Assembly: GCA_016839745.1 (NCBI GenBank)
Contig: JAEOTS010000062.1
Location: 1-13,807 of the forward strand
From: Promethearchaeota archaeon
GTDB taxonomy: Archaea; Asgardarchaeota; Lokiarchaeia; Sigyniarchaeales; SOKP01
Length of the DNA stretch: 13,807 bases
Direction of reading: 5' to 3'
Made by a program: the position numbers and the translations under genes. The notes beneath the pieces are model-generated. The model saw nothing but the letters and a program-made list of their open reading frames with translations, was not told the origin of the DNA and did not search any database. Numbering within the stretch: the stretch's first letter is position 1; the number at the start of each line of letters is the position of its first letter. Below, one piece after another: positions 1,961-5,519 of the stretch.

Positions 1961-2079
1961 GTTAATTACATATACTCTTATCCAATTCCAATATGAAAGA
2001 TTTCCTATTTAAATACTCTTTTTCAGTATTCTATTAAAAATATGTCGGAAGAAACAGATTACATTCTTTTAACTCCTTC

Positions 2080-2796
2080 TTACAATTCCCGCCCGATTCC
2101 ATAATATATAAAAATTGCAGAGGGAATTATAACAAAAGTGGTAATTATACTCCACAGAGAGCTAAATAAAGAGTTTTGCCAGGTTAAATAAAGAACTGTC
2201 CCGTAAATTGAAGAAAGCATTCCATAAATACCAATGATAAAGATGATTAGTTTCCTCTTTAACATCTTATCTTGAAATGTTTTAATTAGGCGCCTTGAAT
2301 ACCATATTGTTGGTAAAACAATAAAAACCGTTAGAGAAATATACACTAAAGTTAAAAAACCCCAACTATAGGATGGACGCCACAGTTCGCTGAATATAAT
2401 TCCGTTGGGAGTAAAAAAAATGATAAAAACTATGAAACCATATATTAATGTGATAATTAATTGCTTTTTAATTGTAAAAACATCTCCTAATCTAAGTATG
2501 CTAATTATAAATGTAAGGATAAAAACTGGTGAAAAAAGCAAAGCAAAGTAACTTAAAAAGTAAATTACTAACAATAATGCAACATTTTCTGGTTGAAACA
2601 CCGCTAAAACTACATGTAGAGCATTAAAAATCAGGCCCGAAGCTGAAAGGAAGTAAAGCATACATAAAGTAAGTGTGGGGCGCTGCTGGTTACGTCTTAA
2701 TAACTTTATAGCAAGGAATAAAAATAAACCAGCCAAAATTAACTGTGGGATAAAAATTATTAATAGTCTTCCTGTATCCGTTGATTGCAGTAGCAC
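2080..2796 (-). CDS. Polytopic (~7 TM) membrane protein without an attached enzymatic domain
   Basis: About seven hydrophobic segments separated by short basic loops (LRRNQQRP, SRRLIKTFQDKMLKRKL). Start placed at GTG 2796 because GAGGT lies 6 nt upstream. The track start at 2817 is an alternative. Confidence 0.8.
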   Translation of the reverse strand: MLLQSTDTGRLLIIFIPQLILAGLFLFLAIKLLRRNQQRPTLTLCMLYFLSASGLIFNALHVVLAVFQPENVALLLVIYFLSYFALLFSPVFILTFIISILRLGDVFTIKKQLIITLIYGFIVFIIFFTPNGIIFSELWRPSYSWGFLTLVYISLTVFIVLPTIWYSRRLIKTFQDKMLKRKLIIFIIGIYGMLSSIYGTVLYLTWQNSLFSSLWSIITTFVIIPSAIFIYYGIGREL

Positions 2797-3000
2797 TTCT
2801 ATACCTCTATAATTCACTAATTACGAAATTAATTCTCTGCTTTATCACTAAAAGTAGTTGTTAAATCATTTAAATAAATATAAATAATATGTGAATATAA
2901 ATTAGTTGTTTTAATCAAGTTTAGCTTATAATTTTAATTCATTTTAATCAAAAAATGTGAGTCTGATTAGACGCTAAATAAATGATTTTATTTCTTTTCT

Positions 3001-3035
3001 AATTTCCGTGAAATCTTTTATACAAAAAGGAAATT
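3001..3035 (-). terminator. Possible hairpin/oligo-T terminator right after the YghO-like GNAT stop
   Basis: AATTTCC (3001-3007) and GGAAATT (3029-3035) form a 7-bp inverted repeat adjoining the stop codon, and the minus strand has a T5 run inside. Confidence 0.3.
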
Positions 3036-4049
3036 TTATATTGAATACTCCAGAATTAGATGCGTTCTCTTATGTTTTTGGCCATATTTTTTCGCAATTC
3101 TAATGCTATGTTTTACATTTTTTTCTATTGGAGATGAATTATAACTTATATTATTATCCCAAGCTTCTTTTCCTGAGTATAGAGTTAACAACCAACCTAA
3201 ACCTTTCCCTTGATGTTCTTTTTCTAATAGGATTATGAATGCCTCCAATGAATCATAAATCTCGCTTTCATTCTTTCTAAAGGGATTAGGCAAGCTAAAA
3301 AAACAACCAACTATATCACCCGTGATTTTATACTTGAGAAAATTAATCATAAAAAGATCGCCATACCGTTTTATAAAATCTATATAGTCCTCGTAAAGAT
3401 GTTCTGTTCCGGGAGTTATAGCGGATTCACGAGGGAGATTTGTGTATAAATCAAAAAATCTTGATTTAAAATTCAAGACTTCTTTCCAGCTTTTTGGATG
3501 GAACATTTCATAGTTTTCAGAATCGAAAATATTTAGACTTTTTGAGTCAATTTTAATCACCGGACCCTCTAAAGACAATTCTTTCGTTTTTAGAGTAAAT
3601 CCTTTATGGAAAAACAATTCTTGATATATTGGGGGATTTATTGGTTTACCTATATATATACTTACTTCGCTTCCCTCCTCCATAAAGCCCCAGCCATAAA
3701 TAACAGTCGGAATATTTATAGGTCCAATTATTTTAGAAAATTTGTTAACTTCTCCATATTCAATCAAATTATCCAATAAGAAGCAAATTTTATTAATATC
3801 GTGATTAAATACACCAAAAAATCCGAAATAGAGAATTTCAGTGTTTTCGTTAAATAATAATACATGTCCAGAGATATTACCATCTTCCGTAAGTAAAATT
3901 GATTTAGCTTGGAAGGTGTTAAGAACATGTATGATATATTGGTAGAATTCGGGCCAAATAGGTAACTCTGTACCAATATATAACCATTTCAGAATCTCAT
4001 CGGTTCTGTCTTCAATTTTAATACCAAAATTTGGATGGGCTTTTTTAAT
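3036..4049 (-). CDS. YghO-like double-GNAT acyltransferase-fold protein (~337 aa), start non-canonical or interrupted
   Basis: Frame is open from 4055 to 3036. The family-type motif LYFGFFGV lies upstream of the track's TTG start. Also IIGPINIP...GWGFMEEG...PINPPIYQELFFHKGF, IVGCFFSLPNP and the acyl-CoA motif EHQGKGLG. AGGTGA (4061-4056) is 6 nt before ATT at 4049. Confidence 0.75.
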   Translation of the reverse strand: MKKAHPNFGIKIEDRTDEILKWLYIGTELPIWPEFYQYIIHVLNTFQAKSILLTEDGNISGHVLLFNENTEILYFGFFGVFNHDINKICFLLDNLIEYGEVNKFSKIIGPINIPTVIYGWGFMEEGSEVSIYIGKPINPPIYQELFFHKGFTLKTKELSLEGPVIKIDSKSLNIFDSENYEMFHPKSWKEVLNFKSRFFDLYTNLPRESAITPGTEHLYEDYIDFIKRYGDLFMINFLKYKITGDIVGCFFSLPNPFRKNESEIYDSLEAFIILLEKEHQGKGLGWLLTLYSGKEAWDNNISYNSSPIEKNVKHSIRIAKKYGQKHKRTHLILEYSI

Positions 4050-4055
4050 TTTAAT

Positions 4056-4061
4056 TCACCT
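4056..4061 (-). promoter_or_regulatory. Shine-Dalgarno-like AGGTGA overlapping an in-frame TGA
   Basis: Plus strand TCACCT at 4056-4061 matches the archaeal GGAGGTGA consensus core, followed by ATTAAA ATT. Confidence 0.55.
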
Positions 4062-4118
4062 ACACTTATGATCTAATTCTACCATAAAATGATAAAAATT
4101 TAAATAAAAGATAAAAGT

Positions 4119-5366
4119 TTATTTTTTCCTTATTTCCTTGAGATATTTTATGGTTTTAAGAAACTCTTCCGTTTCTCGAATTAAGTGAATGTTTTTATTT
4201 AAATTTTTTTCATGATATACAAAAAGTACTTGGTCTTCATATAAATTATTATCTTTATTATACTTGAAAGCCGGAATATAACCTGTAGGTTTAAATCCTG
4301 CGTTATAGAATAGTGTTTGATGAGTAGAATCATATGCAGATAAAAATACTTCCATATATCGTAGTTTAAATTCCAAAATTATTGATTTTATCTCCTCTAA
4401 AAACACATATAGATCTTCTAAAGTCGAAACCTTATAATCGACTTTTTCAACAATATGGATATTCTTGTAATGAAAAAATTGTAAATAATTATTGGTTCCT
4501 TTCATCGAAATTGTTATTAGTTCGGTACCAAATTTATCTTTTTCAATCCTTCTCAATATAATTTTTCTATTGAGTTTGATTTTTTTCTGATCTAATTCCG
4601 ATTCTAAATTACTATCATTCTGTATCACTGGCAATCCTAAATTATACTTCTGAAAAGCATGGAAATAACAGAAGATAGCTGGTGAAATTAATTGAGGTTT
4701 TTGATAGCACCTATAATCGTTTAAAATTTTCTGACAATACGTAACGAATAAAATTTCTGATTCAGGTTGGTTAAAAAAGATATCCTTATTAGGGAGAAAC
4801 CCTACAGGACTTAATCCAGTTAATTTTGCAATATATTGAATACTAGAAAAACCAGATCGAATTTCAGCAAACCAAAGAAATATTTGATTTTTAAATTTTT
4901 GCATAGGAGCTACAACACACGCAATACTCGCAGTAGAAATATCTGCTATATGTTGATATTTCTTTCTAAAGGCAAATCCAAAAAAATTACCAATTTTATT
5001 TTCAAAATCAAGGCGAATTCCTATACAACCTGCAATAATATCTGGTTTTAATGTAAAAATAATCCAATAATAATTAGGATTACTTATCATGTTCTGTATT
5101 TCAGAGACACTCTCTATTTGTTTATAAGGATATGTATTTTGATAGACTTCTTTGAAGATTTTAGTGATTTCTTCAGCATCCTTTCTAGTAGCAAACTTTA
5201 TTGACGGAATTATCTTATCATTCCGAGTAGAATCTTCAAAATTATGCCCTTCTTCTAAGTTTATTTCCCTTGCCCACGGATATGTATTTATCATATCTTC
5301 AATTGAAGTAATCTCTTCTCTAGTTTTAGTCACATTTCTAGAGAACATAGTTAAATGGTCATCCAT
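4119..5366 (-). CDS. GNAT-family N-acetyltransferase-fold protein, 415 aa, probably two GNAT domains
   Basis: IKFATRKDAEEITKIFKEVYQNTYPY (GNAT beta1-alpha1, reminiscent of beta-lysine acetyltransferase AblB/YodP), GLSPVGFLP, and a second C-terminal FYNAGFKPTGYIPAF motif. Confidence 0.8.
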   Translation of the reverse strand: MDDHLTMFSRNVTKTREEITSIEDMINTYPWAREINLEEGHNFEDSTRNDKIIPSIKFATRKDAEEITKIFKEVYQNTYPYKQIESVSEIQNMISNPNYYWIIFTLKPDIIAGCIGIRLDFENKIGNFFGFAFRKKYQHIADISTASIACVVAPMQKFKNQIFLWFAEIRSGFSSIQYIAKLTGLSPVGFLPNKDIFFNQPESEILFVTYCQKILNDYRCYQKPQLISPAIFCYFHAFQKYNLGLPVIQNDSNLESELDQKKIKLNRKIILRRIEKDKFGTELITISMKGTNNYLQFFHYKNIHIVEKVDYKVSTLEDLYVFLEEIKSIILEFKLRYMEVFLSAYDSTHQTLFYNAGFKPTGYIPAFKYNKDNNLYEDQVLFVYHEKNLNKNIHLIRETEEFLKTIKYLKEIRKK

Positions 5367-5519
5367 ACGCTACTTAACATTATCATTATATTATTATTAA
5401 ATTTATGGAATATGTGGAAGATAATTAGCTACGATAATTTATAAAGGAAAAATTTTGGAGTTTACTTTTGAAGAAAATTAAACAAAATTGTCGATTTATT
5501 AGATTAGCTTCTTTTCCAT

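Follow-up and report, generated by a model that had tools for sequence, protein, structure and literature searches.

Probable Shine-Dalgarno-directed initiation at an AUU codon in a tandem GNAT acetyltransferase gene of a Promethearchaeota genome

Where does translation begin in a conserved archaeal gene whose first 93 codons contain no ATG, GTG or TTG? The question is raised by a GNAT acyl/acetyltransferase gene on the minus strand of contig JAEOTS010000062.1 of a Promethearchaeota (Loki-type) archaeon (assembly GCA_016839745.1). The window, that is, the whole stretch of 13,807 nucleotides analyzed here, is the complete contig C27 of a metagenome-assembled genome (MAG; 3.53 Mb, 192 contigs, 89% complete, 32% GC), designated G000. 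Our answer is that translation most probably starts at AUU 4049 by near-cognate initiation directed by a Shine-Dalgarno (SD) sequence, yielding a 337-aa protein, and that, to judge from comparative sequence analysis, the gene exemplifies a pattern that extends across both the genome and the family. Below, WIN stands for the window's own sequence and L-numbers for related loci.

On the minus strand, ATG 4085-4083 is followed by the codons GTA GAA TTA GAT CAT AAG TGT AGG and then by TGA 4058-4056. Next come ATT 4055-4053, AAA and ATT 4049-4047, and the frame stays open through to TAA 3038-3036. The earliest in-frame ATG, GTG or TTG past the TGA is TTG 3776 (codon 93), and the motif ILYFGFFGV lies within the codons that precede it. 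An earlier note on this DNA, made from the letters alone, had described the short ATG-MVELDHKCR-TGA frame, the open frame behind it, the 93 codons without ATG, GTG or TTG with their LYFGFFG motif, and an AGGTGA placed 6 nt before ATT 4049; every one of these coordinates was borne out. Given the base composition, a run of this length is expected by chance in approximately 1% of such stretches (a rough estimate from approximate codon frequencies), and it gains its meaning from lying right at the 5' end of a conserved protein. The features concerned are as follows.

3036..4049, minus strand: proposed coding sequence of the tandem-GNAT protein, with ATT 4049 as putative initiator Met, 337 codons, stop TAA 3038-3036.
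4047..4049, minus strand: proposed start codon ATT, at an aligned spacer of 6 from the end of GGTGA.
4056..4061, minus strand: SD sequence AGGTGA, ending in the in-frame TGA (4058-4056) by which the frame is closed on its upstream side.
4053..4055, minus strand: alternative ATT, a less likely start, adjoining the SD (spacer 0).
4056..4085, minus strand: 9-codon mini-ORF (upstream open reading frame, uORF) ATG-MVELDHKCR-TGA, not conserved and with no SD of its own.
3774..3776, minus strand: TTG, the first canonical start (codon 93), which opens the 246-aa ORF (P0004) reported by gene callers.
3561..4028, minus strand: N-terminal GNAT-fold domain, approximately residues 10-165 of P0002 (the 339-aa stop-to-stop product), from secondary structure, pLDDT and Foldseek.
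3039..3512, minus strand: C-terminal GNAT domain, with the acetyl-CoA motif Q-x-x-G-x-G present as QGKGLG (residues 282-287, bases 3195-3212).

In the proposed mechanism, AGGUGA (4061-4056), a perfect match to the archaeal anti-SD, would pair with the 3' end of 16S rRNA and thereby set the AUU 6 nt downstream (the intervening ATTAAA is exactly 6 nt long) in the P site. The initiator Met-tRNA would then pair with two of the three AUU bases, so that Met would be the first residue, and the strong SD would make up for the weak start codon. The in-frame UGA is the tail of the SD and not a signal, since any spacer divisible by three necessarily brings the tail of GGTGA into frame; the upstream ATG mini-ORF would be incidental.

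Are the 93 start-free codons translated at all? A codon alignment of nine lineages gave pairwise dN/dS values of 0.05-0.4 for the 82 codons that precede TTG 3776, indistinguishable from the remainder of the gene. We found 222 homologs of P0002, all of which, where named, came from Asgard MAGs or sediment metagenomes. An AlphaFold model of P0002 (60 homologs) had a pLDDT of 92, was ordered from residue 10 onward and matched, over its whole length, the tandem-GNAT structures 5KF1, 2WPW, 7Q3A and 2C27 in Foldseek (E 4e-13 to 9e-10, TM 0.6-0.7), with E 8.5e-13 and TM 0.66-0.70 for the glucosamine N-acetyltransferase 5KF1. More than half of the N-terminal GNAT domain is encoded upstream of TTG 3776. 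The Pfam family Acetyltransf_1 aligned with residues 214-291 of P0002 at E 0.014 and 16.1 bits, below the gathering cut-off of 20.7; a precomputed PF00583 match was present in many homologs, and G285 of the QGKGLG motif was nearly invariant in the homolog alignment. Selection and predicted fold together indicate that the 93 codons are translated, as the earlier note had supposed, and that the gene encodes an intact, two-domain (tandem) GNAT acyl/acetyltransferase of about 337 residues. The known tandem-GNAT N-acetyltransferases, such as 5KF1 of C. acetobutylicum, the clavulanate-pathway protein 2WPW and mycothiol synthase MshD (2C27/1OZP), likewise have two GNAT folds per chain and approximately 320-340 residues, and the Q-x-x-G-x-G motif in the C-terminal domain is a further likeness. 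However, sequence identity to 5KF1, 2WPW and MshD is only 8-17%, and, unlike for these proteins, the matches seen for the window family all came from Asgard (Loki-type) genomes and metagenomes.

The same data bear on the product that gene callers report. Gene calls for the window clade span 246-319 aa with ragged N-termini because the first canonical codon varies among relatives, and they could be taken to mean that translation starts downstream, at TTG 3776, or that the gene is a decaying pseudogene whose upstream open frame is a remnant. Stops do gather in the first ~10 codons of relatives (TAA, or TAA plus TAG), but they are limited to an unstructured, poorly conserved stretch before residue 10, and at least 8 lineages preserve an uninterrupted frame of 339-345 codons. 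Translation from TTG 3776 would also leave the first GNAT domain without its strands 1-4 and two of its helices, and it conflicts with the dN/dS of the 82 codons upstream. Across close relatives the first ATG, GTG or TTG occurs at codon 20, 24, 27, 36, 46, 49, 65 or 93, at ordinary sense positions that are not conserved. We therefore regard a downstream start or a pseudogene as very unlikely. With body frames intact and dN/dS well below 1, sequence comparison gives the picture of a functional gene and not of a pseudogene; the called 246-aa product is wrong, and the correct protein, most probably of 337 residues, has two complete GNAT domains.

The missing start codon could also be an artifact or a recent accident, and the earlier note had listed a start-codon or nonsense lesion and an assembly error as its second option. 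Per-run contigs of three sequencing runs (depths 27, 10 and 60; all from one study, which may be the window's own source) showed zero differences over 3900-4250, with neither an ATG at 4049 nor a sense codon at the TGA, and the context GGTGAATT was also found in independent metagenome contigs. On this basis an assembly error was ruled out. A private lesion was likewise ruled out: related lineages also lack a canonical start, and their last in-frame stops differ (TGA, TAA, or TAA plus TAG).

This comparison draws on a syntenic order that recurs in independent metagenomes and genomes: a 415-aa gene, the GNAT gene, a membrane protein annotated as 238 or 245 aa in relatives, and a 128-aa gene. The 415-aa gene was present in synteny at all related loci. 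The two immediate neighbors in the window are the following.

4119..5366, minus strand: 415-aa gene with an ATG start, upstream of the GNAT gene, ending 57 nt before the SD.
2080..2817, minus strand: 245-aa membrane-protein gene, canonically SD-led, with its GTG 2817 start 6 nt behind GAGGT.

The spacing in the membrane-protein gene is about the same as that of AGGTGA and ATT 4049, a resemblance to which the earlier note had already pointed. The 415-aa gene had no Pfam match and no significant BLASTP similarity to the GNAT protein. Its C-terminal part appeared GNAT-like by eye only; paralogy with the GNAT gene was rejected, BLASTP and Pfam both being empty.

Eight distinct related lineages with the same gene order also have no canonical N-terminal start; they include L003, L004, L005, L011, L021/L033, L022/23 and L024-31. 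In the window and in L004, L005, L011 and L021/L033, the last in-frame stop is the TGA of (A/G/T)GGTGA and is followed by ATT. In L022/23 it is a TAA followed by ATT TCA (AAGGTGATGTAAATTTCA), in L003 the corresponding sequence is TAA ATT ACA, and in the abundant L024-31 clade it is TAA ATT ACA TAG. The comparison of orthologous 5' ends suggested in the earlier note thus revealed no ATG start in close relatives, and ATT is kept at the position equivalent to 4049 in WIN, L005, L011, L021 and L033. The SD and the near-cognate codon are retained together in five of the six sequences of this TGA clade, L004 being the exception.

GGTGA-6-ATT is the arrangement of the window clade, and an equivalent SD-ATT TCA or SD-ATA GTA was found in five further groups. 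L022, L034 and L035 have AGGTGA or AGGGTGA (the latter in L034 and L035) followed at 5 nt by ATT TCA, and in L034 and L035 the annotated GTG sits within the SD itself. The more distant L048 and L049 (36-37% identity) carry GGAGGT or GGAGGA ahead of ATT TCA; there the SD comes right after a stop, and no canonical start follows for 27-29 codons. L043 and L045 have AGGTGG-7-ATA GTA. No SD was observed before the plain-ATG family members L006, L010, L012, L016, L037 and L038.

Several of these loci had peculiarities of their own. In L022 (~1390-1410, AAGGTGATGTAAATTTCA), the SD directly before the ATT TCA start shares bases with a minimal GTG-ATG-TAA "start-stop". L021 is a mosaic: its N-terminal 82 codons resemble those of L008/L022 (dS ~0.35) and differ strongly from the window (dS 1.7), while the remaining 250 codons are as near to the window as to any other sequence (dS 0.5), a sequence signal that suggests intragenic recombination between lineages. 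In L007 (JAUWGH010000002.1), compared with L006, a run of ten A's (ATGATTAAAAAAAAAATT) puts the ATG in a different frame from the gene; this is likely a homopolymer indel and not a non-canonical start. A -1 frameshift was considered for L003 and L024, in which an out-of-frame ATG is followed by T_TTA_AAA, and was rejected because nothing equivalent exists in the window clade, where GTG AAT TAA runs into a stop immediately.

The third option of the earlier note was that UGA 4058-4056 is decoded as selenocysteine (Sec) or read through, which from ATG 4085 would give a protein of 349 residues, a length that proved correct. The TGA is in frame with the upstream ATG, and Sec use is conceivable in this lineage: a SepSecS homolog (C150:5822-6766, plus strand, L056, E 3e-96) runs to the end of its contig and points to possible Sec or SepCysS-type machinery in the genome. 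Aragorn detected no tRNA-Sec, but only 11-16 tRNAs were recovered from the MAG, too few for this negative to carry weight, and a search with PF09107 (SelB wing), a bacterial-only model, gave no match. The residue aligned to the TGA in full-length relatives, however, is Gly, Asp or Glu, encoded by sense codons such as GGA and GAA, and never Cys; other clades have TAA or TAA plus TAG in the same stretch, and the upstream ATG is not conserved. In 2000-5500, a region wider than the one first proposed for this search, Rfam gave no SECIS match at E up to 10, although its models may not cover archaeal SECIS elements. Moreover, the SD accounts for the TGA, and the same GGTGA-as-stop geometry was found in seven other SD-led ORFs of the genome. 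Recoding of the UGA is accordingly extremely unlikely. Taken together, the differing stops, the non-conserved uORF and the Gly/Asp/Glu residues at the TGA position exclude a private lesion, Sec and readthrough from a conserved upstream start.

Could the mini-ORF nevertheless contribute? Coupling to it was part of the first option of the earlier note, in which AUU initiation was preferred: ribosomes would translate from ATG 4085, terminate at TGA 4056 within the SD and then begin again at ATT 4049, with the uORF setting the expression level. The mini-ORF does end 6 nt before the ATT and is kept in WIN, L011, L021 and L033. But L004 has ATT in place of its ATG, L005 carries the ATG in another frame, and no such uORF exists in the L003, L022, L024, L034, L048 and L043 groups, all of which nevertheless lack a canonical start. 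Among the four sequences that keep it, its codons show 3 non-synonymous changes versus 1 synonymous change. Homology of the uORF region to the ancestral N-terminus was also considered, but the DNA there is of very low complexity. Inspection of the sequence revealed no SD before ATG 4085, and many other genes of the genome with an SD and a near-cognate codon have no uORF. An AT-rich, TATA-like stretch is present at 4109-4099; by the usual 26-27 nt rule it would place the transcription start near 4077, downstream of ATG 4085. We consider coupling to the uORF improbable. AUU initiation itself was supported by orthologs, selection, fold and the positional test described next, so that this part of the first option stood and the coupling did not.

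If initiation at AUU 4049 reflects SD placement, is the arrangement seen elsewhere in the genome? Strong SD 5-mers ahead of first canonical starts were GGAGG, GAGGT, AGGTG and GGTGA; the aligned spacer, measured from the GGTGA-register end to the start codon, was 3-10 nt with a mode of 6-7. We surveyed 2633 stop-to-stop ORFs of at least 150 codons and selected 48 in which a strong SD lay between -10 and +30 nt relative to the upstream stop and no canonical in-frame start occurred for at least 15 codons. Near-cognate codons (ATT, ATA, ATC, ACG and CTG) accounted for 15/18 in-frame codons at spacer 6, 13/17 at spacer 7 and 6/12 at spacer 5, that is, 34/47 at spacer 5-7 versus 49/367 (13%) at spacer 8-30 (Fisher p=6.6e-17). 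ATA (p=4e-7) and the rare codon ACG (p=1e-4) were significant singly, and no enrichment of AAG, AGG or unrelated codons was detected at spacer 5-7 in the 48 ORFs. A reverse-complement motif control was clean, with 1/14 near-cognate codons. A permuted-motif control (6/11) was imperfect, since some of its motifs, GAGTG and GGGAG for example, remain SD-like. A canonical first start lay at the same spacing in 122 long ORFs (82 ATG, 27 TTG and 13 GTG), so near-cognate starts would make up approximately 22% (about 34) of the strongly SD-led long ORFs. A strong SD followed by AUU, AUA or ACG is therefore enriched across the genome at exactly the spacing of ATT 4049, and the genome survey suggested in the earlier note came out in favor of near-cognate starts.

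The survey also informs the choice between the two ATT codons. Initiation at ATT 4055 (spacer 0) would give a 339-aa protein; an ATT directly follows GGTGA in all six TGA-clade sequences and is the sole ATT shared with L004, and ATT was frequent at spacer 0-2 in the survey. Among canonical starts, however, spacer 0 was rare (7, vs 63-70 at spacer 6-7), and ATT 4055 may be merely the usual A/T-rich spacer after an SD. A start at ATT 4055 thus seems unlikely.

Some observations weigh against initiation at AUU 4049. ATT 4055 and ATT 4049 are indistinguishable from sequence. ATT is a very common codon in a genome of 32% GC, so its presence alone means little and only positional enrichment counts. 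L004 keeps GGGTGA-ATT but has TTT instead of ATT at spacer 6, and its exact start therefore differs from that of the window; either translation starts at the SD-adjacent ATT in L004, or the gene is impaired. The SD that precedes the equivalent ATT in the L003/L024 clade is degenerate (AAGGATGA / AAAGATGA).

Initiation at AUU 4049 gains further context from individual ORFs of the survey. Ten of them (loci L057-L072) have 35-106 codons without a canonical start and, 5-7 nt behind a strong SD, an ACG, ATT, ATA or CTG codon. They are listed with their G000 coordinates, the proposed start and the codon number of the first canonical start.

C38:5436-8927: SMC, proposed start ACG, first canonical start at codon 98.
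C88:138-749: IGPD/HisB, proposed start ACG, first canonical start at codon 53.
C180:23514-24473: TFB, proposed start ATT, first canonical start at codon 76.
C20:11598-12536: RagA/Gtr1-like GTPase, proposed start ATT, first canonical start at codon 35.
C44:21285-21839: PIN domain nuclease, proposed start ACG, first canonical start at codon 77.
C189:208-1329: C5 DNA methylase, proposed start ATA, first canonical start at codon 99.
C93:60574-61098: metallophosphatase, proposed start ATT, first canonical start at codon 106.
C86:26981-28051: V-ATPase subunit C, proposed start ACG, first canonical start at codon 35.
C2:3694-4587: response regulator, proposed start ATA, first canonical start at codon 46.
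C47:13935-14810: ScpB, proposed start CTG, first canonical start at codon 80.

In nine of these ORFs the Pfam match starts at position 1-7 of the profile and sets in long before the first canonical start is reached. ScpB gave no such support, its Pfam domain beginning only past its first canonical start, at residue 127.

The initiation factor aIF1 (SUI1) is itself among the affected genes. The genome's only such ORF (C94:32725-32940, minus strand, L055) has no ATG, GTG or TTG before its zinc ribbon and SUI1 domain, the first canonical start being at codon 43. Among its relatives (L073-L076), that of G060, from another family, also lacks a canonical start, and the single-contig relatives G055 and G050 begin with ATG. 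In eukaryotes and archaea, the e/aIF1 fidelity factor normally rejects near-cognate codons, and archaeal aIF1 reportedly destabilizes complexes on non-AUG mRNA (PMC6237735).

We think it rather likely that start-codon selection is relaxed across this Promethearchaeota genus, with approximately one fifth of strongly SD-led genes, including those for TFB, SMC, HisB, V-ATPase subunit C and aIF1, starting at AUU, AUA, ACG, AUC or CUG and a strong SD compensating. AUU and AUA starts appear to persist across GNAT homologs of only 36% identity, and the same near-cognate pattern is seen in the roughly 34 long ORFs noted above, essential genes among them. If this is true, Asgard gene catalogs systematically truncate or miss such genes, among them the eukaryotic-signature RagA-like GTPase, and inferences on eukaryotic-signature proteins would be affected. 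It would also mean that the closest archaeal relatives of eukaryotes routinely use the eukaryotes' set of near-cognate codons, which bears on the evolution of start-codon stringency between archaea and eukaryotes.

In the literature searched, no paper linked Asgard archaea or Lokiarchaeota to AUU, near-cognate or non-canonical starts, and near-cognate initiation of main ORFs on this scale was not described for archaea. Ribosome profiling of Haloferax volcanii found that approximately 30% of putative alternative initiation sites were near-cognate, and these were set aside by the authors (PMC7261190). The near-cognate sites of H. volcanii are alternative ones, whereas the near-cognate codon of the window would be the only start of a main ORF. 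Further parallels are the bacterial genes that start at AUU behind an SD, such as infC (IF3) and pcnB of E. coli and ebpA of E. faecalis (PMC4447247). Here too the main ORF has no AUG, GUG or UUG start, the SD sets AUU at normal spacing, and automatic annotation mis-calls a downstream canonical codon. In contrast to these bacteria, the archaeon has eukaryote-type factors (aIF1, aIF1A and aIF2) and not IF3, and no autoregulatory logic is evident for an acetyltransferase. Nor does the window gene stand alone: in this genome roughly a fifth of the strongly SD-led long ORFs are alike. Eukaryotic near-cognate initiation involves the same codon set (CUG, ACG and AUU), each codon being one base from AUG; unlike these eukaryotic starts, the codon in the window would be positioned by an SD and not by scanning.

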